Assembly: GCA_903858275.1 (NCBI GenBank)
Contig: CAIOIC010000028.1
Location: 93,173 to 157,172, forward strand
DNA length: 64,000 nucleotides
Origin: an uncultured Verrucomicrobia subdivision 3 bacterium
GTDB taxonomy: Bacteria; Verrucomicrobiota; Verrucomicrobiia; Limisphaerales; UBA11358
Reading direction: 5' to 3'
Shown here: positions 3,312-20,040 of the stretch, in pieces
Numbering within the stretch: the first letter of the stretch is position 1
Layout of the letters: every line of letters begins with the position of its first letter
Position numbers and translations under genes: made by a program
Notes under the pieces: model-generated
Databases searched by the model: none
What the model was told of the DNA's origin: nothing
Seen by the model: only the letters and a program-made list of their open reading frames with translations

Positions 3312-6300
3312 TCAGGGGGCGACTTGCAACCGATAGAATCGGCCGTTGGATTTGGTGTTATCGCTCATCTGGCAATGGCCGCTGGCATCGGCGGTGTTGG
3401 TGGAAACATTAAACCAAATTGCGAGGTCGTCTGTGGCTTGCAAAATGTAATTGGCCCCCGGCGTGCCGGTGCATGTCAGCACAAAGCTGGCGCTTTGGGG
3501 AGAACTGATTTTTGAACTGACGCCGGAGCTGGTGCTCGCGCTGATTTGGAGCACCGGCGGGGCGGAAACGATGGCTTTTGCCGATACGCCCGCGCTTGGA
3601 AGGGAATTAGCCTTCACCGTATTTCCATTGTGCTCGTCATCGTCGGAAGAGCGCTTGGCGACCACTTTCAGAACGGCGTTGGAACTGGTAACCGTGGCAC
3701 CCGGATTCTTGACCGTCAAGGCATACGACCCGGCATTGCTGGTCCGAACATTGGTGATGGTCAGCACGTTGGAGAACGAACCGGAAATGTTTCCCCCGTT
3801 GGTGAGCGCCACGCCGTCCTTTAACCACTGGTAGGTGAATGGTGCCGTGCCGGAAACCGCCGCGCGGAACACGGTGGTCGTTCCGTTAGTTGCCGTCCGG
3901 CTGCCTGCCTGCAACGTGAACACCGGCGGCAACCAGACCGTCAGGGTGGCGTTGGCACTCGTGACGCTGCCCGCTAGATTTGTGACCACCACCGAATAAG
4001 CTGCGGCGTCCGTCATTTTGGCGCTGGCGATGGTGTAGGTGAAATTCGTGGCGTTGGCAATGGCCACGCCGGCTTTGCGCCACTGGTAGCGCAGCGTTTC
4101 CGTGCCGGTGGCGGCGACGCTGAATGTCACGGCGTTGCTCGCCAGGATCCCCTGGTTTGCGGGTTGTGTGATGATGGCTGGCGGCACGATCACGGCAAGC
4201 GATGCGTTGGTGCTGGTGGCGCTGCCAGCCACGTTGCTGGCGGTCAGGCCATAGGCGCCGTTGTCATTGGTCGTGAGATTGGCGACCGTCAGCACGTTGG
4301 AGAATGAACCGGAAATATTTCCGCCGTCGGTGAGCGCCACGCCGTCCTTGAACCATTGGTAGCTGAACGGCGCGGTGCCGGAGACGATCGCGCGGAAAAC
4401 GGTGTTCGTGCCGGACTTCGCCCAGCGGCTCGCCGCCTGCACCGTGAACGCCGGTTTAATATTGACCGTCAGGGTGGCGTTGGAACTCGTGACGCTGCCT
4501 GCGAGATTTGTGACCACCACGGAATAAGCCGCGGCGTCCGTCGTCTTGGCGATCGCCAGCGAGAAGGCGGCGTTCGTGGCGTTGGCAATGGCCACGCCGG
4601 CTTTGCGCCACTGATAAAACAACTTCTCTGTGCCGCTGGTCGTCGCCGTGAACGTCACGGCGTTGCTCAAGGTGACGGATTGGTTCGTTGGTTGCGCGAT
4701 GATGGCCGGTGGCACGATTACGGCGAGCACGGCGTTGGTGCTGGTCGCGCTGCCGGCCACATTGTTGGCGGTCAGGTAATAGGCGCCGCTGTCATTCGTG
4801 ATGAGATTGGCGACCGTTAGCACGTTGGAAAGTGAGCCGGAGATATTTCCGCCGTCGGTGAGCGCCACGCCGTCTTTGAACCACTGGTAGCTGAACGGGG
4901 CGGTGCCGGAAATGGTCGCGCGGAAAACGGTGTTGGTGCCGGATTTCGCCCAGCGATTCGCGGCCTGCGCTGTGAACGCCGGTTTAATATTCACCGTCAA
5001 GGTGGCGTTGGAACTCGTGACGCTGCCCGCAAGATTTGTGACCACCACGGAATAAGCCGCGGCATCCGTTGTCTTGGCAATCGCCACTGAGAAGGCGGCG
5101 TTCGTGGCCCCGACAATCGCCACACCGGCTTTGCGCCATTGATACCGCAGCTGTTCCGTGCCGGTGGCGGCTACCGTGAACGTCGCGGCGTTGCTCAAGG
5201 TGACGGATTGGTTCGCCGGCTGCGTGATGATCGCCGGTGGCACGACCACTGTGAGCACGGCGTTGGTGCTGGTGGCGCTGCCGGCTACGTTGCTGGCGGT
5301 CAGGTAATAGGCACCGTTGTCATTCGTGATGAGATTGGCGACCGTTAGCACGTTGGAAAGTGAGCCGGAGATATTTCCGCCGTCAGCGAGCGCCACGCGG
5401 TCTTTGAACCACTGGTAGCTGAACGGGGCGGTGCCGGAAATGGTCGCGCGGAAAACGGTGTTGGTGCCGGATTTCGCCCAGCGGTTCGTTGCCTGCGCTG
5501 TGAACGCTGGCTTTACATTCACCGTCAGGGTGACGTTGGAACTCGTGACGCTGCCCGCGAGATTTGTGACCACCACGGAATAATTCGCTGCGTCCGTCGT
5601 CTTGGCTACCGCTAGCGAGAAGGTTGCGTTCGTGGCTCCGGCAATCGCCACGCCGGCTTTGCGCCATTGATAACGCAGCGTTTCTGTGCCAGTGGCGCTG
5701 ATGCTGAATGTCACAGCGTTGCTCAAGGTGACGGATTGACTGACCGGTTGGGTGGTGATGGCCGGCGGCACGAGCATGGTCAATGTGGCATTTCTGCTCG
5801 TGGCGCTGCCCACGGCGTTGCCGACGGTCACGGAATAATTGCCGGCCTCCGCCGCCGTCAGCCCGGAAAGTTTCAGGACGTTCGTGGTGGAGCCGGAAAT
5901 ATTCCCGCCCTCCGCGAGCGGCGAACCGTTTTTGAGCCACTGGAAATTCAGCGGCCCGCTGCCGGTGGCGGTCACGGCGAACGTGACGTTGGTTCCGATG
6001 ATGACCGCGCGGTTGGTCGGGTGTCCGGTGATGGCGGGTGGCGTGAAGACCGCCAGCTTGGCCACCGAACTGGTGATGCTTCCATAGATATTCGTGATGA
6101 TGACGGAGTAATTTCCGTTGTCGTTGGTCGAGACATTGGCGAGCGCAAGCGTGGGCAAAGTTGTGCCGGAAACCGTTGCGCCAATGATTAGGCCGCCTCC
6201 CGGCCGGACAGGCGGAACAGGCGGTTTCGGCATGCCCCACGGCGGCGGCGGAACCGACGGCGGAATGCTGGTGGTGGGGCCGCCATAAACGAGGGTGCCG

Positions 6301-9300
6301 TTGGTGAGAGGGGTTCCGTTTTTCAGCCACCGGTATGCCAGCGGGCCGGTGCCGGCGGCGGTGACGGTGAAGGTCGCCGTGTTGCTCACGGCAACATTCT
6401 GGCTGGCGGGCGGCATGATGATGATGGGCGAGGCGTTGATGGAAACATTTGCGTTCGCGCTGGTGACGATGCCGTAGGCATTGCTGACCACGACGGAATA
6501 AGTGTCCACTTCATTCGTTGTCAGCGCGGTAATGGTCAGGTTGGTGGTGGCGGAGCCGGAAATATTTCCGCCGTCCGCCAGCACGATGCCGTGCTGGAAC
6601 CATTGGTAGCTCAGCAGCCCGGTGCCGCTGGCGACCACGGCCAGATTGATCGTGCTGCCGAGTGCGCCGAATTGGTTGGCCGGTTGCGTGACGATGGCCG
6701 GCGGCAAGAGCACCGTGAGCACGGCGGCGGAACTTGTCGCGGTGCCGGCGGCATTGCTGACCACGACGGAATAGCTCGCGGCATCGGCAGCTGAAATGTT
6801 GTTGAGACTCAGTGTCGCCGCCGTCGCGCCGGCGAGGTTGGCGCTGTTTTTCTTCCATTGATAAGTCAGTGGCGCGGTGCCGCTGGCGGTTACGGTGAAC
6901 GAAACATTGCTGCCCGCCAGCGCCGTGACATCGGCGGGTGGCGTGTCAATCGTGGGTGGCACCAGCACCGTGAGGGCGGCGGAGGAACTGGCCGCGCTTC
7001 CGGCGATGTTGGTGACCACCACGGAATAATTACCGGCATCATTGGTGCTGACGGCGGAAAGGGTAAACAAATTGGAAACCGCACCGGCGATGGCGGCGCC
7101 GTTTTTCAACCATTGGAAGCTCAGCGGCGCGGTGCCGGCGGCGGTGGCGCTGAATGAAACTGGATTGCCCTGCACGACGCTGGTGCTGGCCGGAGCCGTG
7201 GTGATGGCGGGCGGCACCAGGACGGTCAGCGCGGCGGCGGCGCTGGTGGCGCTGCCGACGGCGTTGGTGACGGTGGCGGAATAACTCGCCGCGTCCGCCG
7301 CCGCAAGATTTGCCAGCGTCAGCGAGGCGGTGTTCGCGCCGGAGACATTGCCGCCGTTGGCGATGGCCGCGCCATTTTTCTTCCATTGATAAACCAGCGG
7401 CGCGGTGCCGCTGGCGGTGACGGTGAACGAAACATTGCTGCCGGCGATCAGTGTTGCGTCCGCCGGAGAAGTGATGATGGCGGGCGGCACGGAAACCGTG
7501 AGTGAAGCCGCCGGACTGGTGATGGTGCCGAGGCTGTTGCTGACGATCACGGAATAGCTGGCGGTCTCATTGGTGGTGACGGCGGAAAGAATCAGATTGG
7601 TCGTGCCGGCCCCGGAGACGTTCCCGCCGTCGGTGAGCGGAGAATTGTTTTTCAGCCAGAAATAGAACAGTGGGGCGGAACCGGCGGCGCTGACGGTGAA
7701 GCTGGCGTTCGCCCCGGCGACGACGGACAGATTGGCCGGCGGGGCGGTGATGGTCGGCGTGGCGACGATGGTGAGCGGCGCGACGGCGCTGGTCACGCTC
7801 CCGGCGGCGTTGGTGATGATCACGGAGTAATTGCCCGTGTCCGCCGCCGCCACGGCGGTGACGGTGAGCGCGCTGGTGGTGACGCCGGAATATTTTACGC
7901 CGTTGGCGATGGCTGCACCATTCTTGAGCCATTGATAGGCGAGCGGCGCGGAGCCGGTGGCGGTGACGGAGAAACTGGCGCTGACGCCGCCGGCGACGGC
8001 TTGCGCGGCCGGCTGGGTGGAGATCGTGGGTGGCACCAGCACCGTGAGGGCGGCGGAGGAACTGGCCGCGCTTCCGGCGATGTTGGTGACCACCACGGAA
8101 TAATTGGCGGCGTCATTGGTGCTGACGGCGGAAAGGGTGAGGACATTGGAAACCGCGCCGGGGATGGCGGCGCCGTTTTTTAACCATTGGAAGCTCAAGG
8201 GCGCGGTGCCGGCGGCGGTGGCGCTGAATGAAACTGGATTGCCCTGCACGACCGTCGCGTTGGTCGGCGCCGCCGTGATGGCGGGCGGCACCAGGACGGT
8301 CAGCGCGGCGGCGGCGCTGGTGGCGCTGCCGACGGCGTTGGTGACGGTGGCGGAATAACTCGCCGCGTCCGCCGCCGCAAGATTTGCCAGCGTCAGCGTG
8401 GCGGTGTTCGCGCCGGAGACGTTGCCGCCGTTGGCGATGGCACTGCCATTTTTCTTCCATTGATAAACCAGCGGTGCGGTGCCGCTGGCGGTGACGGTGA
8501 AAGTGACATTGCTGCCGGCAATCCGCGTAGCGTCCGCCGGTGAAGTGACGATGGCGGGCGGCACGGAAACCGTGAGCGCGGCGGCGGTGCTGGTGATGGT
8601 GCCGAGGCTGTTGCTGACGATCACGGAATAGCTGGCGGCGTCATTGGTGGTGACGGTGGAGAGAATCAGATTGGCCGTGCTGACGCCGGAAACATTGCCG
8701 CCGTTGGCGAGCGGGGAATTGTTTTTCAGCCAGAAATAGAACAGCGGCGCGGAACCGGCGGCGGTGACAGTGAAGCTGGCGCTGGCCCCGGCGACCACGG
8801 AAAGATTGGCGGGCGGGGTGGTGATGGTCGGCGTGGCGACAATGGTGAGCGGCGCAACCGCGCTGGTCACGCTGCCGGCGGCGTTGGTGATGACGACGGA
8901 GTAATTGCCCGTGTCCGCCGCGGCGGCGGCGGTGACGGTGAGTCCGCTGGTGGTGACGCCGGAATATTTTGCGCCGTTGGCGATGGCCGCGCCGTTTTTC
9001 AACCACTGATAGGCGAGCGGCGCAGAGCCGGTGGCGGTGACGGAGAAACTGGCGCTGACGCCGCTGGCCACAGCTTGTGCGGCGGGCTGGGCGGTGATGG
9101 TCGGTGGCAAAATCACCGTGAGCGCGGCGGCGGTGCTGGTGGCGGTGCCGACGCTGTTGCTGACGAGGACGGAATAATTTGCCGCGTCCGCCGCCGCCAC
9201 AGTGGTGAGGGTGAGCGTGGCGGTGGTGGCGCCGGCGATATTGCCGCCGTTGGCGAGCGGCGAATTATTTTTCAGCCAGAAATAGCCGAGCGGCGCGGTG

Positions 9301-9914
9301 CCGGAGGCGGTGGCGGTGAAGGTCGCGGTTTTTCCCGCGACGACATTGGTGGCGCTGGGGGCCTTGGTGATGGCCGGAGCCGTGGGCGTGGTGGTGCCGG
9401 TGATGGTGAGGGTGATGGTCTGCGAGAGCGTGGCGTTGCCGGGGCTGACCACGGTGACGGTGGTGGCATAGGTGCCGGCGGCGGTCGGCGTGCCGGTGAG
9501 AGTGCCGCCGATGGTTGTGGCATTGTTTACCCAGGAGGCGGTGAAGGTCAGTCCGGGTGGCAAAGTCGCAGTTGTGCTCTGGCCGTTCATCAGCAGAGTG
9601 GAGGTCACCGTGCCGGCGGACAGGAAAAAGTAATCATTCGCCGCCGCCTTGCTGCCGCCGCCGATGGAGACCGTGACGTTCTGGCTGAACGCCGTGCCCA
9701 CCGTGCCGCTGAACGTGCTGGGCGTGGTGTAGGTTGAGGTTGCGGCGGAAACCGCATCCACCGAGCCCAGCACCGCGCCGGTGCCGATGCCCCAGCGCAG
9801 GATGAAAGCGAAGGTGTTGCCGGTGGCCGGGTTGACGAGCATGGTCCGCACCAGCGGCAGCACCTGCAACAGGGCCGCTAGTATCACTGCCGGTTTTTGG
9901 AGGCGGATATGCAT
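3312..9914 (-). CDS. Giant secreted/surface protein with 21 tandem Ig-like (I-set type) domains (2200 aa)
   Basis: 6.6-kb ORF. Bipartite hydrophobic leader, then a He_PIG-like head (GTPTAAGTYATTVTV). I counted 21 modules of about 88-92 aa, each with a [YF][QFR]W strand motif and an NYSV-type motif. The C-terminal domain of about 85 aa ends FYRLQVAP. Confidence 0.9.
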   Translation of the reverse strand: MHIRLQKPAVILAALLQVLPLVRTMLVNPATGNTFAFILRWGIGTGAVLGSVDAVSAATSTYTTPSTFSGTVGTAFSQNVTVSIGGGSKAAANDYFFLSAGTVTSTLLMNGQSTTATLPPGLTFTASWVNNATTIGGTLTGTPTAAGTYATTVTVVSPGNATLSQTITLTITGTTTPTAPAITKAPSATNVVAGKTATFTATASGTAPLGYFWLKNNSPLANGGNIAGATTATLTLTTVAAADAANYSVLVSNSVGTATSTAAALTVILPPTITAQPAAQAVASGVSASFSVTATGSAPLAYQWLKNGAAIANGAKYSGVTTSGLTVTAAAAADTGNYSVVITNAAGSVTSAVAPLTIVATPTITTPPANLSVVAGASASFTVTAAGSAPLFYFWLKNNSPLANGGNVSGVSTANLILSTVTTNDAASYSVIVSNSLGTITSTAAALTVSVPPAIVTSPADATRIAGSNVTFTVTASGTAPLVYQWKKNGSAIANGGNVSGANTATLTLANLAAADAASYSATVTNAVGSATSAAAALTVLVPPAITAAPTNATVVQGNPVSFSATAAGTAPLSFQWLKNGAAIPGAVSNVLTLSAVSTNDAANYSVVVTNIAGSAASSSAALTVLVPPTISTQPAAQAVAGGVSASFSVTATGSAPLAYQWLKNGAAIANGVKYSGVTTSALTVTAVAAADTGNYSVIITNAAGSVTSAVAPLTIVATPTITAPPANLSVVAGANASFTVSAAGSAPLFYFWLKNNSPLTDGGNVSGAGTTNLILSAVTTNETASYSVIVSNSLGTITSPAASLTVSVPPAIITSPADATLIAGSNVSFTVTASGTAPLVYQWKKNGAAIANGGNVSGANTASLTLANLAAADAASYSATVTNAVGSATSAAAALTVLVPPAITTAPASTSVVQGNPVSFSATAAGTAPLSFQWLKNGAAIAGAVSNLFTLSAVSTNDAGNYSVVVTNIAGSAASSSAALTVLVPPTIDTPPADVTALAGSNVSFTVTASGTAPLTYQWKKNSANLAGATAATLSLNNISAADAASYSVVVSNAAGTATSSAAVLTVLLPPAIVTQPANQFGALGSTINLAVVASGTGLLSYQWFQHGIVLADGGNISGSATTNLTITALTTNEVDTYSVVVSNAYGIVTSANANVSINASPIIIMPPASQNVAVSNTATFTVTAAGTGPLAYRWLKNGTPLTNGTLVYGGPTTSIPPSVPPPPWGMPKPPVPPVRPGGGLIIGATVSGTTLPTLALANVSTNDNGNYSVIITNIYGSITSSVAKLAVFTPPAITGHPTNRAVIIGTNVTFAVTATGSGPLNFQWLKNGSPLAEGGNISGSTTNVLKLSGLTAAEAGNYSVTVGNAVGSATSRNATLTMLVPPAITTQPVSQSVTLSNAVTFSISATGTETLRYQWRKAGVAIAGATNATFSLAVAKTTDAANYSVVVTNLAGSVTSSNVTLTVNVKPAFTAQATNRWAKSGTNTVFRATISGTAPFSYQWFKDRVALADGGNISGSLSNVLTVANLITNDNGAYYLTASNVAGSATSTNAVLTVVVPPAIITQPANQSVTLSNAATFTVAATGTEQLRYQWRKAGVAIVGATNAAFSVAIAKTTDAAAYSVVVTNLAGSVTSSNATLTVNIKPAFTAQAANRWAKSGTNTVFRATISGTAPFSYQWFKDGVALTDGGNISGSLSNVLTVANLITNDSGAYYLTANNVAGSATSTNAVLAVIVPPAIIAQPTNQSVTLSNAVTFTATTSGTEKLFYQWRKAGVAIANATNAAFSLAIAKTTDAAAYSVVVTNLAGSVTSSNATLTVNIKPAFTVQAASRWAKSGTNTVFRAIVSGTAPFSYQWFKDGVALTDGGNISGSFSNVLTVANLTTNDNGAYGLTASNVAGSATSTNASLAVIVPPAIITQPANQGILASNAVTFSVAATGTETLRYQWRKAGVAIANATNFTYTIASAKMTDAAAYSVVVTNLAGSVTSANATLTVWLPPVFTLQAGSRTATNGTTTVFRAAVSGTAPFTYQWLKDGVALTNGGNISGSFSNVLTITNVRTSNAGSYALTVKNPGATVTSSNAVLKVVAKRSSDDDEHNGNTVKANSLPSAGVSAKAIVSAPPVLQISASTSSGVSSKISSPQSASFVLTCTGTPGANYILQATDDLAIWFNVSTNTADASGHCQMSDNTKSNGRFYRLQVAP
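3657..5768 (-). repeat. Four tandem 528-bp units (two Ig domains each) inside the giant gene
   Basis: Each unit begins PPAI(I/T)(T/A)QP and contains LRYQWRKAGVAI plus FSYQWFKDGVAL domains. Unit boundaries read at 5768 and 3657 give exactly 4 x 528 nt. Antisense ORFs ending at 4820 and 5348 are offset by 528. Confidence 0.85.
6960..9107 (-). repeat. Tandem duplication of a 1074-bp four-Ig-domain block (2 copies: 6960-8033 and 8034-9107)
   Basis: The PPTI(T/S)(A/T)QPAAQAVA block starts read at 9107 and 8033, and the next PPTIDTPP starts at 6959. Near-identical shadow ORFs are offset by exactly 1074 (7039-7386 vs 8113-8460, 7567-7932 vs 8641-9006). Confidence 0.9.
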
Positions 9915-9926
9915 AAGGTTATCGGG

Positions 9927-11213
9927 TTAGGGCACGACCATCAGGCGGTAAAACAGGCTGGGCGCGCTCGGGTTGTTCGAAATGGTGATCGGTGTGGGCG
10001 TGGCGGTGGGCGGATAGTTCGTGAACACGCCCCAGTTGGTGCTGGCAAGGACACCGTTCGTCAGCACCGTGTTGGTGAGGCCGGCGATGGGCGTGAAAGT
10101 GAACTGAAATTGTGTGCCGCCCTGAATCGAACCGCCCACCATCGGCGGCAACGGATTCGTCACCACCAGGTTGGCGATGGCGCTGGTCACGCTGCCCGCG
10201 CTGTTGGTGAGGATGACGGTGTAGGCCCCGGCCTGGCAGGCGCGGAGGTTGGTGAAGGAGAGCGAGGCATTCGTTCCGCCGACAATGCTGGTGGTGATCA
10301 GGTTGGTGGTGATCCGCCATTGGTAGGCGAGGGCGGGGAAACCTCCGGCGGTGATGGCGAGGCTGCCGGAACCGCCGGCCACGTTGGTGAAACTGACGGG
10401 GGAATTGGTGATGACCGGCGGCTGCCAGACCGTGAGCGTGGCAAAGGAGCTGGTGACCGAGCCGGAGGAATTGGTGATGATGACCCGGTAATTACCGGTG
10501 TTCGTCAGCTGAATATTCGTCAGCGTGAGCGAGGTGTTCGTGGCGTTGAGCAGCGCGGTGTTGGTGTTGAAATACCACTGATAATGCAAGGGTGCAGTGC
10601 CGGCGGTGACGGTGAACGTGGCGTTGCTGCTGACGTTGTTGGTCAGGCTGACGGGTTGGTTGGTGATGACGGGGGGAGAACCGGCTGGTAAAATTGTTAT
10701 CCAAAAATTTGTTTCTACCACTAATGATAAATAAGTAATTATGACGTGAACATAGAGGTTGGTAACGGGTGTTGTTGGGGTTCCATAAATTGCTCCATAG
10801 ATTGGCTTGGGGGTACCGCCGATATTTAAGTCGTAAAATTTGAAGACTAAACCGGCAGGCATACAGCTTGTGGTTGAATTTCCGTTTAGTAACGCAGTAG
10901 AAACAACGCCCGACTTATTGGTGAGAACACAAAAAGCTCCAGAATTTCCACCGTTGTTTGTGATCGCCACGTTGTTAGTGAAGTAGATTCCAGCAGTTCC
11001 TGTAAAATTTGTTGAATTTGTAAAAATAACAGGCGCTGACGCTCCTGACACTGCATCCACTGCGCCCAGCGCGGCACCAGTGCCAATGCCCCAGCGGAGG
11101 ATAAACGCAAAGGTGTTGCCGGTGGCGGGGTTGATAAACAGGTTCCGCACCAGCGGCATGAGCTGCAAGGCTGCCGCCAGAAAAACCGGAAGTGTTTGGG
11201 TGAGTCTTTTCAT
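9927..11213 (-). CDS. Secreted Ig-like domain protein, short paralogue of the giant protein (428 aa)
   Basis: Same leader (LPLVRN..NPATGNTFAFILRWGIGTGAALGAVDAVSGA), a He_PIG-like head, two Ig-like modules (LHYQWYF, LAYQWRI) and a C-terminal domain ending FYRLMVVP. It stops 12 nt before the giant gene start. Confidence 0.85.
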   Translation of the reverse strand: MKRLTQTLPVFLAAALQLMPLVRNLFINPATGNTFAFILRWGIGTGAALGAVDAVSGASAPVIFTNSTNFTGTAGIYFTNNVAITNNGGNSGAFCVLTNKSGVVSTALLNGNSTTSCMPAGLVFKFYDLNIGGTPKPIYGAIYGTPTTPVTNLYVHVIITYLSLVVETNFWITILPAGSPPVITNQPVSLTNNVSSNATFTVTAGTAPLHYQWYFNTNTALLNATNTSLTLTNIQLTNTGNYRVIITNSSGSVTSSFATLTVWQPPVITNSPVSFTNVAGGSGSLAITAGGFPALAYQWRITTNLITTSIVGGTNASLSFTNLRACQAGAYTVILTNSAGSVTSAIANLVVTNPLPPMVGGSIQGGTQFQFTFTPIAGLTNTVLTNGVLASTNWGVFTNYPPTATPTPITISNNPSAPSLFYRLMVVP

Positions 11214-11324: not shown

Positions 11325-11543
11325 TTAGTTGCAACCGCAGCCGCCGCCGCCCACGCCGCGCCCGCCGCTGGCGGCCTCGCGGGAGAACCACATGTGCTCG
11401 ATCTGCGCCTGGCCCAGCGGATCGCGGTCAGCCCGCATGGTGTAGTCGGCCAGCGTTCCGCGCTGCCACGGTTTGACATTAGCACATCCACTCCCGATGA
11501 TAAGCAGGGGCAGTGCCAAGATGAGGAAAGCTTTGTATTTCAT
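11325..11543 (-). CDS. DUF4266-like lipoprotein (72 aa)
   Basis: Lipobox LIIGSGC, a VKPWQRGTLA core and a Gly-rich C-terminus ending GGGGCGCN, as I recall for DUF4266 family members. Confidence 0.75.
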   Translation of the reverse strand: MKYKAFLILALPLLIIGSGCANVKPWQRGTLADYTMRADRDPLGQAQIEHMWFSREAASGGRGVGGGGCGCN

Positions 11544-11548
11544 AGGTA

Positions 11549-12043
11549 TTATTTCAAAAGGGATTCAATTTCGCTGATGTATTCCTTGCGAGTGTCCTCA
11601 CCATGGAAACCATTGTGTAAAAATCGCACTTTGCCGGTGGCATCGAGGATGAAGGAGGTGGGCATGGTGGCCGGTTCCACGGCAGCCACGAGCTTCTGCT
11701 CGGCATCGCGCACGACGGTGAAGGAGACCGGATGTTTCGCCATGAAGGCGTCCATCTTGGACTTCTTGTCGTCCACATTCACGGCGAGCACGACCACGCG
11801 GTCGGCGTATTTCTTCTGGAGCTCGTCCAGCACCGGGAAGGACTTGGCGCAGGGCGTGCACCAGGAGGCCCAGAAATCCACGACGATGATTTTGCCTTTC
11901 AGCGCGTCGGGCAATTTGCCTTCCAGCTTGAAGCTGGCGAGGTCGGGCAGCGTGTCGCCGACCTTGAGGGCGGCGGACGCGGTGAAGAAGGTTCCGGCGA
12001 GCAGGGTCGCCACGGCGAATTTTTTAAGCAGGGATGTATTCAT
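11549..12043 (-). CDS. TlpA-family periplasmic thiol:disulfide oxidoreductase (164 aa)
   Basis: The start is taken at the internal ATG (12041-12043), giving MNTSLLKKFAVATLLAGTFFTASA as signal peptide. Active site FWASWCTPC. The longer track ORF (to 12763) is a shadow over apbE. Confidence 0.85.
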   Translation of the reverse strand: MNTSLLKKFAVATLLAGTFFTASAALKVGDTLPDLASFKLEGKLPDALKGKIIVVDFWASWCTPCAKSFPVLDELQKKYADRVVVLAVNVDDKKSKMDAFMAKHPVSFTVVRDAEQKLVAAVEPATMPTSFILDATGKVRFLHNGFHGEDTRKEYISEIESLLK

Positions 12044-13022
12044 GGAATTTACGGGAATAGAGTTTGGTGGTTTCAGTGGTGACGGCCCCGGCGGCGCCGG
12101 GATGGAGTTCGACGAGTTGCAAGCCCTCTTTCGCGCCGAGGATGCACACGCTGGTAGAAAGTAGACCGGCGATGGTGCAGCTCGGCGCGATGATGGACAC
12201 GGCCCGGCAATCGTTTTGTGCGGGATAGCCGGTGCGCGGGTCGAGGATGTGACCGTAGCGACGGCCGTTGATCTTGAAATTACGAAGATAGTCGCCGGAG
12301 GTGGCCACGGCATGGTCGGTGATGGCCACGCCGCCCCAGCATTTGCCGGGCGCGGTCGCGTCATCCAGGCCAATCCACCAGAATTTTTTCCCCGGCGCAT
12401 GGCCGCGCGCGCGCACGTCCTGGCCGAAATCCACCAGCACATTCGTGATGCCGCGCTGGATGGCCATGTTGATGACGCAATCCACGGCGTATTCCTTGCC
12501 GATGCCGCCAAGGTCGAGCGCCATGCCCGCCTGCGGCAAAAAGATGCCGCCGGCGCGGCGCTGGATCTTGTTCCAGCCCACGAGTTCGCGGGCGGCCTGG
12601 ATGTCGGCGTCCGTCGGGATGACGGGAGGATTGGCCTTCCAGTTCCACAATTTGATGAGCGGCAGCGCCGTCGGGTCAAACGAGCCGCGGGTGAAGAAAA
12701 ACAATTCCTGGCAGAGATTGAACAGCCGGTCGGTTTCGGGATCGGTTTCCACCCAATGTTCACCGGCAGCGGCGTTGATGCGGCCGATCAAACTGTCCGG
12801 AATGAACCGCGAATAGCGTGCTTCAAACTGCGCGACCCACGCCACGGCGTCGCGTTGAAAATCGCGGGCGACCGTGGCCGAAACGCCATGCAGCTTGATC
12901 TGGCATTGCGTGCTCATGGCCCGAAAGTCCAAACGATGCAGGCCGTTCTCGACCGTCGTCTGCGCGGATTGCATGACGCGGGCGATGACTTCGGCAGCTG
13001 TGTTGGAACTGGTCATTACCAT
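12024..13022 (-). CDS. apbE: FAD:protein FMN transferase (ApbE family)
   Basis: 332 aa with ApbE-like blocks (FDPTALPLIKLW, ALDLGGIGKEYAVD, ATSGDY..F..NG..YGHILDPRTG). Overlaps the flanking genes by 7 nt and 20 nt. Confidence 0.85.
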   Translation of the reverse strand: MVMTSSNTAAEVIARVMQSAQTTVENGLHRLDFRAMSTQCQIKLHGVSATVARDFQRDAVAWVAQFEARYSRFIPDSLIGRINAAAGEHWVETDPETDRLFNLCQELFFFTRGSFDPTALPLIKLWNWKANPPVIPTDADIQAARELVGWNKIQRRAGGIFLPQAGMALDLGGIGKEYAVDCVINMAIQRGITNVLVDFGQDVRARGHAPGKKFWWIGLDDATAPGKCWGGVAITDHAVATSGDYLRNFKINGRRYGHILDPRTGYPAQNDCRAVSIIAPSCTIAGLLSTSVCILGAKEGLQLVELHPGAAGAVTTETTKLYSRKFHEYIPA

Positions 13023-14239
13023 AAAATCGAGAGACCGACGGAAAAGACATTGGCCTTGGGATACATATCGGATGTGGTATTGTCCAAGCCCCTCATTTCA
13101 TAGCGATGATAACCAGCAATCACGCGTAGATGGTCGTTGATGATCACCGTGGCTTGCAGGCCGTAATCAATCGTGAACATGTTCGAGAGCCGGTAGTCGG
13201 ACGAATAATAGCCCGCGGGACTTGTCGTGAACGGCCCGGTGAAGGTGGTGGTGTAAAACGAGGCGGCGGATTGTTCGCTGAAGCGGAACATGGGTTCCAC
13301 CATGAGATGCTTGCCGAGCCATTGATGCCAGGTCAGGCCGACGGTATGGCTGAACACATCATAGGAGTCGTGATAAAAACGATAGGATCCCTCCAGGCTC
13401 GCATCGAGTGAATCGAAGTGATGCGTCAGCGAGGTGTAGAGGATTTGTTTGTTGCGATGCGCGGGCCGGCGTTCGGGCACGCCGATGTTGAAACCGGTGG
13501 GGAAAATGTCAGGATGATATTCCGCCAGCCGATAGGGATCGCTCATGTAGCCGGAATCATTGCCGATGGTGAAGGCGACATTGAGAATATCCTTGGGCGA
13601 CAGCAGTTGGGTGATGCCGACGATGCCATCGGTGGTATCTTTTCCGATCCAGGTTTTCTTGTCCGATTGGCGGATAGTGTCAAAGTTGTGCGAGACGCCG
13701 AGTTGTAGTGTGGTGTTCTTGTCGTTGAACTCATAAGCCTCGTTCAGCGAAATGCCGTAGGAGAGGTAATCGTGTTCTTTGCTCCAGGAAAAACCGGGAG
13801 TGAGGGTGTGACTCTTAATTTTCCAATCCAGCGCAATATTAGCTGCACGGCGGAGGTCGGGTTCGATTTTTTGAATGATGGCTTTACCGTCCAGACCGTG
13901 TGTGCCTGTTGGCGTGGCGCCGGAGACGCTATCATAAATCAGTTCGCCCTTGGCGATGATGGAATCAATGAGCTTCTGTTCGAAATAGACGGAGTGCGTC
14001 TCGATTTTCATCCGATTGCCATCCTCGTCGTAATAGCCGTAGCGGTAGTCCACATGGTTTTCCGCGCGGAGGAGCGACGGCAGGGTGAGGGTCATCCCCA
14101 GCGGCAGGAAGCGGCGCCATTGGCGCGCGATGTGCCAGGCCAAATTTGCCGCCGGAGTCGGTTGAGAAGAATGCAGTTTTTTCGTCATATATTTGCGCGG
14201 TTTTCTAAAAATCTGTCGTGAGCATAGCGGCCCGTCCAT
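13016..14239 (-). CDS. DUF3570-like protein, probable outer-membrane beta-barrel
   Basis: 407 aa, or 390 aa if it starts at MTKK (14188). Alternating beta-strand-like composition with many Y/G/D/S residues and a C-terminal aromatic end (GLSILW). Contains DSVSGAT at aa 103-109. Family call is from memory of the DUF3570/DUF4266/ApbE/thioredoxin synteny. Confidence 0.65.
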   Translation of the reverse strand: MDGPLCSRQIFRKPRKYMTKKLHSSQPTPAANLAWHIARQWRRFLPLGMTLTLPSLLRAENHVDYRYGYYDEDGNRMKIETHSVYFEQKLIDSIIAKGELIYDSVSGATPTGTHGLDGKAIIQKIEPDLRRAANIALDWKIKSHTLTPGFSWSKEHDYLSYGISLNEAYEFNDKNTTLQLGVSHNFDTIRQSDKKTWIGKDTTDGIVGITQLLSPKDILNVAFTIGNDSGYMSDPYRLAEYHPDIFPTGFNIGVPERRPAHRNKQILYTSLTHHFDSLDASLEGSYRFYHDSYDVFSHTVGLTWHQWLGKHLMVEPMFRFSEQSAASFYTTTFTGPFTTSPAGYYSSDYRLSNMFTIDYGLQATVIINDHLRVIAGYHRYEMRGLDNTTSDMYPKANVFSVGLSILW

Positions 14240-14296: not shown

Positions 14297-15349
14297 TCAA
14301 ATCTGGAAGGATTGCGGCTGTTCCACCAGCGGCAGCCGGAGGCGGGCGATGTGATAATTTTTGCCGAGTCGGCGTTGGAAATGGATCTCCGGCTCGAGGC
14401 GCAGCAGCGCCGCCACCACGCGCAGGCCGAGGCCGAGCGTGGCTTCGGCATTGGCTGATTGGCGCACGCGGTTGGTCACGATCAGCACCGCCTGCTGCCG
14501 GTGCCGCCGGATGCGCACCGTGAAATCGCCTTCACCATGCTTGAGCGAATTGGTGAGCAGGGAATGGGCAATCTGCCGGACGTGGCGCGGATCGGCGGAT
14601 ACCCAGCAGTCCGGAATGGATTGCAGTTTGAACTGGCGCCCCTCTTCGGTGGCGAGCAGTTGAAAATCTTCCACCACTTCCGTGATGGTGGCGCCCAGAT
14701 TGAACACCGAGCGCGCGGCCAGCATCCGGCCCTGTTCGGCCCGGGCGATGAGCAGCGATTGATCAATGACGTGCGTGAGCCGGTGGAGTTCGCTCTCGAG
14801 TTCCTCCGCGAGCTCGGGGGCGATGCGGTCGCCGGCCTGCTCCACTTTCAGCCGGATGATGGCCAGCGGCGTGCGGAGTTCGTGCGCGACCTTGGCCGCG
14901 TAGGCGTTCATCTCGGCAAAGGATGCGTCCAGCCGCGCCAGCAGATCATTCAGTTGCCGGAGCAGGTCGCGAAATTCCAGATCCACTTCCGGCAGCGAAA
15001 TTGGTTCGCCGAGATTGCCGGGATTTTTTGCCTGCAGCTGCCGGTTCACGCTGGCGATGGGCCGCAGCGATTGCCGCGCCAGCCAGAAGCCGCCGGCGAC
15101 CGCCACCACCATCACCGGAATGAGCCACATCAGCGCGGTGTTCAGCACGGCATCAGAAATCTGGTGGACCTCCGCCTCGGTCAGGCTGTTGTGCAGCCGC
15201 CAGTCCGGCATTTCGGGATAAGTCCGGTTGCAGGCCTTCTCCAGCAGCTCGGATTCCAGCACCAGATGCAGGATGTGGGTGAACGCGATGGTCACCGTGG
15301 CGAAGCCGAGCGCGCCCCATAGCGTCAAACGTGTGCGCAGGGATTTCAT
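14297..15349 (-). CDS. Sensor histidine kinase (HAMP-HisKA-HATPase, CusS-like but with a short periplasmic loop)
   Basis: Two TM segments flank a loop of about 35-40 aa. H-box AKVAHELRTPLAII. C-terminal ATPase G-boxes (LGLGLRVV). Confidence 0.85.
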   Translation of the reverse strand: MKSLRTRLTLWGALGFATVTIAFTHILHLVLESELLEKACNRTYPEMPDWRLHNSLTEAEVHQISDAVLNTALMWLIPVMVVAVAGGFWLARQSLRPIASVNRQLQAKNPGNLGEPISLPEVDLEFRDLLRQLNDLLARLDASFAEMNAYAAKVAHELRTPLAIIRLKVEQAGDRIAPELAEELESELHRLTHVIDQSLLIARAEQGRMLAARSVFNLGATITEVVEDFQLLATEEGRQFKLQSIPDCWVSADPRHVRQIAHSLLTNSLKHGEGDFTVRIRRHRQQAVLIVTNRVRQSANAEATLGLGLRVVAALLRLEPEIHFQRRLGKNYHIARLRLPLVEQPQSFQI

Positions 15350-16026
15350 GCCGGCTCCTCCTCCCGCAGCGCAAAGCCAACGCCGCGCACCGTGTGGATG
15401 AGCGGCGGCCGGCTGGGCAGGTCGATTTTGCGGCGCAGCAATTTGATGTAAACATTCACAACATTGGTCTCGGAATCGAAATGCTGGTCCCAGACGTGCT
15501 CGATAATGGAGGTTTTGCTCACCGGCTTGGGCGAGGCGTTGATGAGAAATTCCAGCAGGGAAAATTCGCGCGGCGTCAGCTCGATCTTTTCCTCCCCGCG
15601 CTTGGCTTCGTGCGAGAGCAGATCCAGTTCCAGGTCGGCCACCCGGATGACGTTCGTCGTCTGCGGCCGCTGCCGCCGCAATACGGCGCGGAGCCGGGCG
15701 AGCAATTCCGCGATGGAAAAAGGTTTGGTCAGATAATCATCCGCGCCGGCATCCAGCCCGCGCACCTTGTCCTCGATGTCGTCGCGCGCCGTGAGGAAAA
15801 TGACCGGCGCGAGAATCTGCTTGCGCCGCAACAGCCGCACAACGGTGATGCCGTCCTTGTGCGGCATGCCGATGTCCAGCAGCAGCGCGTCATAGGTGTT
15901 CGATTCGGCCAGCCAGATCGCCTCGTCGCCATCATGGGCCACGTCCACCGCATAGCCCTCCGCCGCGAGCCCGGCCCGGACGTGCTCCGCTACTTTACGT
16001 TCATCTTCCGCTAGCAGGATGCGCAT
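15346..16026 (-). CDS. OmpR-family response regulator (CusR/heavy-metal type)
   Basis: The start is taken at the ATG at 16024-16026 (MRILLAEDE...). Receiver domain with DALLLDIGMP and ADDYLTKPF, plus a winged-helix C-terminus (IHTVRGVGF). 4-nt overlap with the kinase gene. Confidence 0.9.
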   Translation of the reverse strand: MRILLAEDERKVAEHVRAGLAAEGYAVDVAHDGDEAIWLAESNTYDALLLDIGMPHKDGITVVRLLRRKQILAPVIFLTARDDIEDKVRGLDAGADDYLTKPFSIAELLARLRAVLRRQRPQTTNVIRVADLELDLLSHEAKRGEEKIELTPREFSLLEFLINASPKPVSKTSIIEHVWDQHFDSETNVVNVYIKLLRRKIDLPSRPPLIHTVRGVGFALREEEPA

Positions 16027-16095
16027 GGATTTGTTAAGAACATAATCTGTGGCGGGGCAATTCACCATGGAAAAATGGAGCGTTGCCTGCTTCCC

Positions 16096-16428: not shown

Positions 16429-16555
16429 CCTCGCTCCTCGTCGTCCGTAAGGTCGGCTGGACAGCATGTTTGCGAACCGATAACTGATTCCCTCCTTGGG
16501 ACAGGATTGATGGCTCGCCAACTTCAAAAAGTTGCTGAAAAAAACTTTAGCTATT

Positions 16556-17410
16556 ATGCCCGTTAAAACATTTAGACCGCTGACGCCGTCCACGCGATAC
16601 ATCACCATCGCGGACTTTAGCGACATTACGAAGACGACGCCCGAGAAGTCGCTTGTGGAAATCCGCAAGAAGACCGGTGGCCGCAATATGTACGGCCGCG
16701 TCACCGCTCGCGGTATCGGCGGCGGTCACAAGCAGAAAATCCGCCTCGTCGATTTCAAGCGCAACAAGCATGGCGTCGAAGCCACGGTGTCCGCGATTGA
16801 ATACGATCCGATGCGCTCGGCGCGCCTGGCCCTCCTCGAATACAAGGACGGCGAGAAGCGCTACATCATCGCCCCGGTCGGCGTGACGGTGGGTCGCGTC
16901 ATTTCCAGCGGGCCGACGGCTCCGCCCGAAGTGGGCAACGCCCTCCCGCTCAAGTCGATTCCCGTCAGTTCGGCGATTCACAATTTGGAGCTGACCCCCG
17001 GCCGTGGCGGTCAGATCGTTCGTTCCGCCGGCGGCGCCGCGACGCTGATGTCGCGCGACGAAGGTTACGCGCAGATCCGCCTGCCTTCCGGTGAAATCCG
17101 CAAGGTCAACGAGGAATGCTATGCGACCATCGGTCAGGTCGGCAACACCGAGCACGAAAATGTGGTTTTGGGCAAGGCGGGGCGCACCCGTCATCGCGGT
17201 CATCGCGGTATCACCCGCGGTATGGCGCGCAACCCGGTGGACCATCCGAACGGCGGCGGTCAGGGTAAATCCAAGGGCGGCGGCGGCTGGCAGCAGCTCA
17301 TGTCCCCGTGGGGCAAGGTGGCCAAGGGTGGTAAAACCCGCGCCAAATATAAACAATCCAACCGTTTCATCGTGGTTCGCCGCAACGGGCTGCCGATCAA
17401 GACCAAGTAA
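16556..17410 (+). CDS. rplB: 50S ribosomal protein L2
   Basis: MPVKTFRPLTPSTRY start, with GGGHK, RNPVDHPNGGGQGK. Confidence 0.97.
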   Translation: MPVKTFRPLTPSTRYITIADFSDITKTTPEKSLVEIRKKTGGRNMYGRVTARGIGGGHKQKIRLVDFKRNKHGVEATVSAIEYDPMRSARLALLEYKDGEKRYIIAPVGVTVGRVISSGPTAPPEVGNALPLKSIPVSSAIHNLELTPGRGGQIVRSAGGAATLMSRDEGYAQIRLPSGEIRKVNEECYATIGQVGNTEHENVVLGKAGRTRHRGHRGITRGMARNPVDHPNGGGQGKSKGGGGWQQLMSPWGKVAKGGKTRAKYKQSNRFIVVRRNGLPIKTK

Positions 17411-17416
17411 AATTTT

Positions 17417-17698
17417 ATGGGACGTTCGATAAAAAAAGGTCCGTTTGTTGACGCTCGGCTGCTGGAAAAAGTCCAGAAAGCCAAAAGCGCCAACCAGAAG
17501 ACGCCGATTAAGACCTGGTCGCGCCGCTCGACGATTTCGCCGGAATTTGTCGGCCTGACGTTTGCGGTGCATAACGGCAAGGTGTTCAATCCGGTTTTTG
17601 TGACCGAAAACATGGTCGGTCACAAGCTGGGTGAATTTTCGCTGACGCGCACCTTCAAGAAACACGGTGCCCACACCGCCAAGGCGGAGGCCAAATAG
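17417..17698 (+). CDS. rpsS: 30S ribosomal protein S19
   Basis: [12 protein letters not shown]...[19 protein letters not shown]. Confidence 0.97.
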
Positions 17699-17703
17699 TT
17701 TTT

Positions 17704-18036
17704 ATGGAAGTTTTCGCCATTACCAAAAATATCCCGATGTCCGCGCAGAAGATGCGCGAAGTCGTCCGGCAGATCCAGGGCTTGCCGGCCTTGCAGGCCG
17801 AGCAGATTCTGGCCGTCGTGCCGCGCAAGGGCGCGCGCTTCGTCGCCAAGACGCTGCATTCGGCCATCGCCAATGCGGAGAACAACAACAAGCTGCGTCC
17901 CGAAACCTTGCGCATCAAGGAAGCGGTCGCCGGCACGGCCACGACGCTCAAGCGCTTTCAGCCGAAGGCGCGCGGCTCCGCCGGTCCGATCCTGAAGCGC
18001 CGTTGCCACATCAAAATCACTTTGTCCGACGAATAA
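17704..18036 (+). CDS. rplV: 50S ribosomal protein L22
   Basis: 110 aa, SAQKMREV...IANAENN...KRF.PKARG; conserved operon position. Confidence 0.95.
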
Positions 18037-18037
18037 T

Positions 18038-18712
18038 ATGGGCCAAAAGACCAATCCAATCGGTTTGCGCGTCGCGGTCAACAAAGACTGGCGCTCGAAG
18101 TGGTATGCTGACAAAAAAGAATTCAGCAAGCTGCTCACGGAAGACCGCGAGATTCGCGATCTGCTCAAGAAGAAGCTGGAATCGGCCTCGGTGCCGCGCA
18201 TCTTGATCGAGCGCGCCACAAATCGCTGCCGTGTGACCATCATGACCGCCCGTCCCGGTGTCGTCATCGGTCGCAAAGGCTCGGAAATCGACAAGCTCAA
18301 GGAAGAATTGAGCAAGAAGACCGGCAAGGAAGTCTACGTGGACATCGTCGAAATCAAGCAGCCCGAACTCGATGCGCAGTTGGTCGCGGAAAACATCGCG
18401 TTGCAGCTCGAGCGCCGCGTTTCGTTCCGCCGTGCGATGAAGAAGGCGCTTCAGACCGCCAAAGATTTCGGTGCCGAAGGCATCAAGGTGCGTGCCGCCG
18501 GACGTTTGGGTGGCGCGGAGTTGGCCCGCGTGGAAATGTATCACTGGGGCCGGGTGCCGTTGCACACGCTCCGCGCGAACATTGACTACGGTTTCGCGGA
18601 AGCCAGGACGGTTTACGGCAAGCTGGGCATCAAGTGCTGGATTTGCAGGGGCGACAACAAACCGGCCAAGAAAGTCGAAAACAAACCCGAAGCGGCAACC
18701 GTCGCGAGTTAA
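18038..18712 (+). CDS. rpsC: 30S ribosomal protein S3
   Basis: [12 protein letters not shown]...KH domain...GRLGGAE.AR.E. Confidence 0.97.
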
Positions 18713-18734
18713 TTTTTAAGAAAGTATTTTTGTT

Positions 18735-19157
18735 ATGGCAATGCAGCCGGATAAAGTAAAATATCGCAAAATGCACCGCGGCAGCCGCACGGGCATGGCG
18801 ATGACGGGCAACACCGTCGCGTTTGGCGAATATGGTTTGATGGCGCTGGAGCGCTGCTGGATGGACGGCAAGCAGCTGGAAGCCTGTCGCGTTGCCATCA
18901 CGCGCCACATGAAGCGCAAGGGCAAGATGTGGATCCGGGTGTTTCCGCAGAAGTCCTACACCAAGAAGCCGCTGGAAACGCGCATGGGTAAGGGCAAGGC
19001 GCCCCTCGAAGGCTGGGTGGCTGTCGTGCGCCCGGCGAACATTTTGTTTGAAGTGGACGGCGTCACCGAAGCCGAAGCGCGTGAATCCATGCGCTTGGCG
19101 GCGACGAAATTGCCGATCAAAACCAAGTTTATTTCACGTCATCAACACGTGAGCTGA
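18735..19157 (+). CDS. rplP: 50S ribosomal protein L16
   Basis: [14 protein letters not shown]...RMGKGKG..E.WVAVV.PG. Confidence 0.97.
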
Positions 19158-19161
19158 GACC

Positions 19162-19362
19162 ATGAAATTTGCTGAAATTAAAGACCTGACGCTGGCGGAA
19201 TTGGCGGCCAAGAGCCGCGACCTCCGGCATGAGATGTTCAACCTGCGCCTGCAACAGGCGAGCGCGCAGTTGGAGAAACCGGCACGCCTGCGCACGCTGC
19301 GCAAGGACATCGCCCGCGTCGAAACCCGTATTTCGGCCTTGAGCAACAAGGCGGCTAAATAA
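19162..19362 (+). CDS. rpmC: 50S ribosomal protein L29
   Basis: 66 aa, L..EL.....LR.E.FNLR.Q pattern; operon position. Confidence 0.93.
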   Translation: MKFAEIKDLTLAELAAKSRDLRHEMFNLRLQQASAQLEKPARLRTLRKDIARVETRISALSNKAAK

Positions 19363-19368
19363 TTTTGT

Positions 19369-19665
19369 ATGGCTGAAGCAACCAATAACGTGGCGGCCAC
19401 CGGCAAGCGCAAGCAGCGCGTCGGCGAAGTCGTCTCGAACAAGATGACCAAGACGATTGTGGTGCGCGTGGAACGCCGTTTCCCGCATCCGCAATACAAG
19501 AAGATCGTGACGTCCTATAAAAAGTTTTACGCGCACGACGAAAAGGCCGAGGCCAAGATGGGCGACACGGTGTGCATCGAGGAATCGCGCCCGTTGTCCA
19601 AGCTTAAGCGCTGGACGCTCATCAAGGTGGTTGAGCGCGCCCAGGAAACCGCAGTCGCAGCCTGA
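19369..19665 (+). CDS. rpsQ: 30S ribosomal protein S17
   Basis: [17 protein letters not shown]...HP.YKK......K..AHDE. Confidence 0.95.
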
Positions 19666-19674
19666 TAAAAGATT

Positions 19675-20040
19675 ATGTTGCAAATTCGTTCCAGTTTGGA
19701 TGTGGCGGACAACACCGGTGCCAAGGTGGCTTGGAACATCGGCGTGTTGGGTCGCAACCAGCGTTATGCCGGCATCGGCGACGTCATCAAGGTCCACATC
19801 AAGGAAGCCGCCCCGGATGGTTCGGTGAAAAAAGGCGAAGTGCATGATGCCGTCATCGTCCGCACCCGCCAGATCACCCGCCGCTCGGATGGTTCCTACC
19901 TGCGCTTTGACCGCAATGCCTGCGTCATCATCGACAAGGAAATGAATCCCAAAGGCACCCGCATTTTCGGCCCGGTCGCCCGCGAATTGCGCGAAAAGAA
20001 GTTCATGAAAATCATTTCACTCGCGCCCGAAGTCATTTGA
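19675..20040 (+). CDS. rplN: 50S ribosomal protein L14
   Basis: [15 protein letters not shown]... Confidence 0.97.

Follow-up and report, generated by a model that had tools for sequence, protein, structure and literature searches.

DSVSGAT of a DUF3570 outer-membrane-type protein from a Limisphaerales bacterium as a probable flavinylation site of the adjacent ApbE

Taking orphan apbE genes as their starting point, Méheust et al. (eLife 2021; PMC8238504) arrived at DUF3570 proteins as a new ApbE substrate, named as such in their abstract, and described two conserved [S/T]GA[S/T] motifs in this family. Co-expression of the Chlorobium luteolum (C. luteolum) DUF3570 protein and its cognate ApbE in Escherichia coli (E. 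coli) resulted in covalently bound flavin, which was detected under ultraviolet light on sodium dodecyl sulfate-polyacrylamide gels and was abolished only when the serines of both motifs were mutated; the pair was active in the E. coli cytoplasm, both proteins being expressed without signal peptides (PMC8238504). The published gene set comprises ApbE, DUF3570, a thioredoxin-like protein and a DUF4266 protein with a CXC motif, with or without DsbD, and the authors proposed that DsbD feeds a hybrid route of electron transfer through thiols and flavins whose final function is unknown (PMC8238504). Here we describe a locus of this type in a stretch of 64,000 nt (positions 93,173 to 157,172 of contig CAIOIC010000028.1, assembly GCA_903858275.1; hereafter the window) from an uncultured Verrucomicrobia subdivision 3 bacterium of the Limisphaerales, in which a DUF3570 protein carrying the sequence DSVSGAT is encoded next to apbE. 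It is very probable that Thr109 of this protein is the covalent acceptor of flavin mononucleotide (FMN), modified by the adjacent ApbE, a reading that draws on the motif, its invariance in the family, the complete gene set, the predicted barrel fold and the flavinylation of a homologue in the literature. The original prediction, derived from the raw sequence, had put forward the DUF3570 protein as substrate of the overlapping apbE, which the published C. luteolum experiment and the conservation of the motif support, and had regarded a flavinylated protein of this kind as unusual; the possibility had already been recognised, the substrate class having been published in 2021 (PMC8238504). The prediction is thus a correct rediscovery of a published and experimentally shown class of substrate.

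The site and the gene that carries it are located as follows.

13913..13933, minus strand: predicted DUF3570 flavinylation site 1, D103-T109 (sequence, family invariance, shuffle test, published family experiment)
13913-13915, minus strand: codon of Thr109, the predicted FMN acceptor
13016..14239, minus strand: DUF3570 gene, maximal open reading frame of 407 amino acids, barrel ending in ...SILW (PF12094, AlphaFold2, Foldseek)

Translation of GAT AGC GTC TCC GGC GCC ACG, the reverse complement of 13913-13933, gave DSVSGAT as previously read, and the numbering D103-S-V-S-G-A-T109 is correct for the maximal open reading frame (ORF). Because homologues mostly start at the methionine equivalent to M18 (MTKKLH..., codon 14186-14188), the true precursor is probably 17 residues shorter, starting from M18 at 14188; numbered from there, the predicted acceptor threonine is probably residue 92. 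The family assignment was affirmed by a Pfam match to DUF3570 (PF12094) of 206.1 bits against a cut-off of 25 (E 1.1e-60); this was the sole Pfam match of the protein, and no FMN_bind domain of the NqrC/RnfG type was found around DSVSGAT. When the protein was shuffled 20,000 times with its composition preserved, the strict motif Dxx[ST]GA[ST] arose with a P of 0.003. The overlap with apbE was likewise found as predicted: the DUF3570 stop and the apbE start share 7 nt (ATGGTAA), through which the two genes are translationally coupled.

Conservation of the site was assessed in 120 close homologues (56-100% identity) and in a diverse set of 102 full-length representatives of 50%-identity clusters, with identities to the query down to ~29%. 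All 120 close homologues carry the site as Y-D-x-[IV]-S-G-[AS]-[TS]-P-x-G. Among the diverse representatives G107 and P110 are invariant (102/102), position 109 is occupied by T in 60 and S in 42 sequences and by nothing else, and position 103 by D in 75 and N in 23. Conservation of SGAT among DUF3570 homologues, which the original prediction had named as its own check, is therefore borne out in both sets, and by these alignments the DSVSGAT of the window is the family-wide site 1 of DUF3570. NqrC and RnfG share with this protein the Dxx[S/T]GA[S/T] acceptor, an enzyme of the ApbE family and a role in extracytosolic electron transfer, but their FMN_bind domain is small, periplasmic and anchored in the inner membrane, whereas the window protein is predicted to be an outer-membrane beta-barrel of ~350 residues with an unrelated fold; in DUF3570, unlike in NqrC/RnfG, the residue after the motif is always Pro.

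The second site of two-motif DUF3570 proteins lies 10-100 residues downstream of the first, in a variable insertion that aligns after window residues ~117-121, and is present in ~30 of the 102 diverse representatives. The corresponding loop L2 is short in the window protein, with KAIIQKIEPD opposite QQVLSGASIRE of the Methyloprofundus protein in a direct alignment. To judge from the alignments, this Limisphaerales clade is a natural single-site variant of DUF3570. A supposed degenerate second site at residues 319-329 (RFSEQSAASFY) was rejected, as across the 102 representatives it proved to be a motif common to the family, R-Y-Y-x-Q-S-A-A-D-F-Y, in which the residue that would have to be the acceptor is Asp. 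At the other extreme, one distant representative of 415 amino acids (P0200) has six [ST]GA[ST] motifs, of which one is site 1, four lie within the L2 insertion and the last lies beyond it, and is possibly a multi-flavinylated barrel. Compared with the C. luteolum pair (DUF3570 ABB24424.1, ApbE ABB24423.1), the window thus has in common PF12094, the first [S/T]GA[S/T] site and an adjacent apbE and, as regards the DsbD-DUF3570 system as a whole, the thioredoxin-fold protein, the C-terminal CXC of DUF4266 and DsbD, but its DUF3570 protein has one site and a short L2 loop.

An AlphaFold2 model built on the alignment of 120 sequences is all-beta, with a mean predicted local distance difference test score (pLDDT) of 84.8 that rises to ~93 over residues 61-407, and manual reading of the DSSP output gave 16 main strands. 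Strands are joined on one side by short turns of 2-4 residues (92-93, 142-143, 172-175, 215-216, 276-279, 309-311 and 369-370), while the loops on the opposite side are longer, two of them (231-260 and 324-353) comprising ~30 residues each. Short periplasmic turns and long external loops are the usual pattern of outer-membrane barrels, and the protein further has the even (predicted) strand number, C-terminal aromatic residue (...SILW) and export signal expected of such proteins. Searched against the Protein Data Bank (PDB) with Foldseek, it matched outer-membrane barrels exclusively, including PgaA, PelB, BcsC, FadL, OmpG, porins and TonB-dependent receptors, at template modelling (TM) scores of 0.4-0.6 and ~10% identity. 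The predicted fold is that of a generic outer-membrane barrel without a specific solved relative, and the description of the protein as outer-membrane-type is supported by both model and structure search.

In the model, strands 3 (94-114) and 4 (120-141) make up a long hairpin, and Thr109, in strand 3, precedes its tip by five residues. Because the strand order with a periplasmic N-terminus places it on the extracellular side, Thr109 would lie near the tip of the extracellular hairpin L2. Beyond residue 103 both faces of the strand are polar, which fits a protrusion past the membrane. Three motifs are invariant throughout the family, DPYR (234-237), R-x-x-x-Q-S-A-A-[D/S]-F-Y (319-329) and S-S-D-Y-R-L-S (346-352). 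These sit in the two predicted external loops of ~30 residues and represent a candidate flavin-binding or plug region.

The mechanism that we propose begins with the ApbE encoded immediately downstream, which would transfer FMN from flavin adenine dinucleotide (FAD) to Thr109 through a phosphoester bond. DsbD would take reducing equivalents out of the cytoplasm and through the inner membrane, a CxxC redoxin of the TlpA type and the CXC lipoprotein DUF4266 would relay them by thiol-disulfide exchange, and the FMN on the DUF3570 barrel would take the electrons and hand them to an extracytosolic acceptor. This order of carriers, from DsbD through redoxin and DUF4266 to FMN, follows the model of Méheust et al., and we hold the electron pathway through the four proteins with less confidence than the assignment of the acceptor residue. 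The genes concerned and those around them are listed below.

15346..16068, minus strand: OmpR-type response regulator of the two-component system directly upstream
14297..15349, minus strand: HAMP/HisKA histidine kinase of the same two-component system
12024..13022, minus strand: ApbE-family FAD:protein FMN transferase, 332 amino acids (PF02424, similarity to ApbE/Ftp/FmnB in the PDB)
11549..12043, minus strand: TlpA/ResA-like secreted thiol:disulfide oxidoreductase, 164 amino acids, with Sec signal peptide and W-C-T-P-C (Pfam)
11325..11543, minus strand: DUF4266 small lipoprotein-like protein, 72 amino acids, with lipoprotein-like signal and C-terminal C-G-C-N, a CXC motif (PF14086, E 4e-21)
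9927..11213, minus strand: Ig_3-domain protein, 428 amino acids, with motif D53-A-V-S-G-A-S59 (codons 11037-11057)
3312..9914, minus strand: giant Ig-repeat protein, 2200 amino acids, with motif D53-A-V-S-A-A-T59 (codons 9738-9758)
1183..3270, minus strand: full-length DsbD, a transmembrane thiol-disulfide electron transporter, 695 amino acids, with DsbD_N, DsbD_TM and Thioredoxin_7 (precomputed Pfam, identical contig)

All five published components (ApbE, DUF3570, thioredoxin-like protein, DUF4266 and DsbD) are therefore encoded on the minus strand between 1183 and 14239. The redoxin, which starts MNTSLLKK..., gave matches to Redoxin, AhpC-TSA and Thioredoxin_8 and not to PF13899, the family named in the earlier study, which was found on the window DsbD instead; NCBIfam matches to ResA/TlpA were below cut-off. 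Related loci were compared in a scan of 80 loci with a clade alignment, a sample that is biased towards bacteria of the Planctomycetes-Verrucomicrobia-Chlamydiae (PVC) superphylum, and the closest genomes are Limisphaerales (Verrucomicrobia subdivision 3) metagenome-assembled genomes (MAGs). DUF3570 and apbE adjoin each other in most of these loci. DsbD, the presumed electron source of the system, is kept at the same position, and the two-component system, which recurs upstream in ~25 related loci, is a probable regulator of the operon. Compared with the published system, the locus has a two-component system upstream and one to four Ig-repeat proteins before DsbD, and the gene order DUF3570-ApbE-TlpA-DUF4266 differs from TlpA-DUF4266-DUF3570-ApbE in Gammaproteobacteria. 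In a Verrucomicrobia MAG (CAIVQH010000054.1; locus L029) two tandem DUF3570-TlpA-DUF4266-Ig(N-domain) copies were found with no apbE within the 21-kb locus, and loci L034, L070 and L079 also have no apbE beside DUF3570, indicating that the enzyme can be encoded elsewhere. The operon of the window runs divergently to an adjoining ribosomal-protein cluster (L2, S19, L22, S3, L16, ... SecY) at 16532..20040 onward on the plus strand, and this arrangement is kept in a related Limisphaerales contig (L004).

The window ApbE matched PF02424 at 245.5 bits against a cut-off of 25.6, and solved ApbE/Ftp/FmnB enzymes of the PDB with E values of 4e-32 to 1e-27. Its N-terminus reads MVMTSSNTAAEVIARVMQSAQTTVENGLHRLDFRAMST... 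and has no hydrophobic segment before the domain (maximum Kyte-Doolittle score 0.8 over 12 residues). Signal-less ApbEs are encoded in 60 of 68 loci of the PVC superphylum, the other 8 being ORF extensions back into the DUF3570 gene. With the active-site triads of Vibrio cholerae (S241/H257/D285) and FmnB (S257/H273/D301) as reference, His258, the general base, Ser242 and Thr290 of the solved ApbEs are retained, while Glu177 replaces the Gly of the I-A-K-G loop and Gly286 stands opposite V. cholerae D285 and FmnB D301, the Asp of the A-D-x-L-[AS]-T element. This Asp is conserved in the enzymes of Thermotoga maritima, Treponema pallidum (D284), V. cholerae and Listeria monocytogenes, and is replaced by Ala in PDB 4xdr, which is a variant of T. 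pallidum Ftp. Gly286, Glu177 and Cys282 are invariant in all 68 DUF3570-linked ApbEs. We considered whether an ApbE lacking both signal peptide and Asp is a peculiarity of this clade and rejected this, because the ApbEs of the DUF3570 operons of Thermochromatium tepidum and Methyloprofundus show the same signal-less, Gly/Glu/Cys traits; the enzyme of gammaproteobacterial DUF3570 operons is accordingly of the same subtype. By their sequences, DUF3570-associated ApbEs are a distinct subfamily, seen in Verrucomicrobiota, Planctomycetota and two Gammaproteobacteria, in which the carboxylate may have been relocated to Glu177.

Since this ApbE has no signal peptide and the C. luteolum pair is active in the cytoplasm, the simplest reading is that flavinylation precedes export; the alternative would be an unrecognised export route. 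A cytoplasmic ApbE has a precedent in Klebsiella pneumoniae, where it flavinylates fumarate reductase (reviewed in PMC12052999). That enzyme is likewise without signal peptide, but its substrate stays in the cytoplasm, whereas the substrate in the window carries a signal for export and is predicted to fold as an outer-membrane protein, and the window ApbE does not have the conserved Asp. The export-signal region of the DUF3570 protein (residues 18-59; window 14063..14188, minus strand) is unusually conserved in sequence (WRRxLPLGLxFxLPQLLRA/EN). As a signal it is atypical, with a conserved ...WRRFLPLGMTLTLPSLLRA/EN, and weakly hydrophobic (maximum Kyte-Doolittle score 1.26). Export of the pre-flavinylated protein by the twin-arginine translocation route (W-R-R-F-L-P, basic c-region) was rejected, given that RR occurs in just 68 of the 120 close homologues and that WQR, WRS, WQN and WPR are found at this position in others.

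According to the original prediction, only the DUF3570 protein among the operon products carries the motif. This is correct for the six genes counted at the time (response regulator, histidine kinase, DUF3570, ApbE, TlpA-like protein and DUF4266), but the operon continues downstream, and the two Ig-repeat proteins encoded there carry DAVSGAS and DAVSAAT. Of the 65 Verrucomicrobial species loci that extend for 1.5 kb or more beyond DUF4266, 59 encode between one and four Ig-domain proteins after it, the first of which starts within 400 nt in 52 of the 59, and such proteins are found even in loci without two-component system and DsbD. They have in common an N-terminal domain of ~58 residues, ...LAAxLQxxPLxR...AxILRWxxGxAAxxGxx[D/H]-A-V-S-G-A-[T/S], whose most conserved columns are those of the motif. 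Among 82 profile-aligned proteins the last position is invariably T (45) or S (36; 81/81 in total), the other columns being A in 74, G in 68 (A in 13) and S in 73, and the first position is D in 38, H in 32 and Q in 7. The DAVSGAS of the 428-residue protein has a shuffle P of 0.00075, and the DAVSAAT of the giant paralogue is also located at residue 53; the latter protein of 2200 residues contains no other [ST]GA[ST], where ~1.9 would be expected by chance. No description of the N-domain and its motif was found in the literature searched, in Pfam or in NCBIfam.

The AlphaFold model of the 428-residue Ig protein, based on a 13-row alignment, has a mean pLDDT of 43 and is unreliable beyond residue 55; its better part (pLDDT 63-81) is predicted as a hairpin of two helices, 7-27 and 34-58, and the motif lies where the second helix ends. 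A profile search for the N-domain in a set of 5.8 billion proteins returned 11 fragments from a candidate list saturated by low-complexity words, and both independent matches on long contigs (2/2) lay inside DUF3570 operons. All 62 loci with the N-domain have a single-site DUF3570, and the two-site loci (Humisphaera, T. tepidum and Methyloprofundus, of the Planctomycetota and Gammaproteobacteria) have no Ig N-domain proteins; this contrast is confounded in that it follows phylogeny and amounts to ~three independent contrasts. At the C-termini of the Ig proteins of the window (9927..11213 and 3312..9914, minus strand) and of loci L003-L005 a motif F-Y-R-[LAV]-x-V-x-P is conserved, for instance FYRLMVVP and FYRLQVAP, which may be a sorting or docking signal. 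The length of the giant gene differs between otherwise identical metagenome contigs, 2200 versus 1043 amino acids with a gap (L002 15849-18980), owing either to variation in repeat number or to assembly collapse of near-identical Ig repeats.

Several points weigh against Thr109 as a site modified by the adjacent enzyme. All biochemistry comes from C. luteolum, so that modification of this protein or clade is predicted from a homologue, and alignment with two-site members showed that the second [S/T]GA[S/T] site of the family is absent from the window protein. Neither a signal peptide nor a lipobox was found in the N-terminus of the window ApbE, and the conserved active-site Asp is Gly286 in this enzyme; because both features are missing, its activity and compartment are assumed. 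Placing Thr109 outside the cell depends on the strand order of a predicted model. The features of the enzyme lend some weight to the explanation that the motif is kept for a structural or assembly reason and is unmodified here, with an ApbE variant that is inactive or otherwise active, in FAD hydrolysis or flavin trafficking: Gly286 takes the place of the Asp present in solved enzymes of four species and altered to Ala in 4xdr, and an outer-membrane substrate, after its export, no longer shares a compartment with an enzyme that has no signal peptide. We nevertheless consider this explanation unlikely, because even deeply diverged homologues keep without exception the S/T of the acceptor position, the G and the Pro next to the motif, and because His, Ser and Thr of the active site are kept. 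Moreover, the same ApbE subtype accompanies DUF3570 in three phyla, the invariant Glu177 could replace the carboxylate, and the flavinylation of the C. luteolum pair in the cytoplasm without signal peptides is consistent with modification before export. That the motif is a mere chance match in a protein containing Ser, Gly, Ala and Thr would be conceivable for so short a sequence, with a core of four and a total of seven residues, but is refuted by conservation: more than 200 homologues have the site without variation and, with a shuffle P of 0.003 and apbE next to it, the probability left to chance is negligible.

A further explanation, which extends rather than excludes flavinylation of Thr109, is that the ApbE also or mainly flavinylates the Ig proteins, which would provide a second flavin in trans. 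We regard this as possible, although we lean against it. It would account for an Ig N-domain in 59 of 65 loci with an invariant terminal S/T (81/81), for the low shuffle P of DAVSGAS together with the placement of DAVSAAT at the same residue 53, for the confinement of the long-contig profile matches to DUF3570 operons, and for the pattern by which 62 of 62 N-domain loci are single-site and two-site loci lack the domain. Mutagenesis of a model ApbE substrate showed that G-to-A keeps ~50% of flavinylation and that D-to-A has minor effects (PMC12052999). However, the correlation with single-site DUF3570 is confounded by phylogeny, about half of the Ig proteins have His or Gln instead of the Asp, and small residues in a row where a membrane helix ends could be kept for packing or peptidase processing. 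A hairpin with both N- and C-terminus inside would put the Ig domains into the cytoplasm, which is implausible, and the model of the Ig protein is poor outside residues 1-55. The 428-residue Ig protein is a candidate for an additional ApbE substrate.

Carried further, this candidate leads to a tentative proposal, to which we give a rather low probability, that in Verrucomicrobiota the Ig surface proteins are flavinylated before export by the same ApbE, supply in trans the second flavin that the barrel of other phyla bears in loop L2, and form a flavin relay at the outer membrane and cell surface. Porin-cytochrome conduits of the MtrAB/MtrC type combine an outer-membrane beta-barrel with redox cofactors that are fed from the periplasm. 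By analogy, a relay of Ig proteins and DUF3570 might, doubtful as we hold this to be, constitute a counterpart of such conduits built from thiols and flavins. Surface-exposed partner proteins would possibly be a further feature of both, but the cofactor here would be FMN and not haem, the carriers upstream would work by thiol-disulfide exchange, and a complex of barrel and Ig proteins is hypothetical.

The flavinylation site itself adds little to what is known, as a class of substrate validated in 2021 has been re-derived from raw sequence and extended to a Limisphaerales genome. The parts worth following are the motif of the Ig proteins, the signal-less, Asp-less ApbE subfamily and the probable surface-side flavin. 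The Ig proteins with the motif, the signal-less ApbEs linked to DUF3570 and the replacement of Asp by Gly in these enzymes appear to be undescribed. For locating and measuring the flavin, the single-site DUF3570 clade is a simpler model than a two-site protein, and the ApbE subfamily makes one ask at what place and in what way a protein of the outer membrane becomes flavinylated. Should the Ig-repeat proteins indeed be substrates, the targets of ApbE would include a new class, and these proteins would give a first hint at the destination of the electrons in the DUF3570 system.

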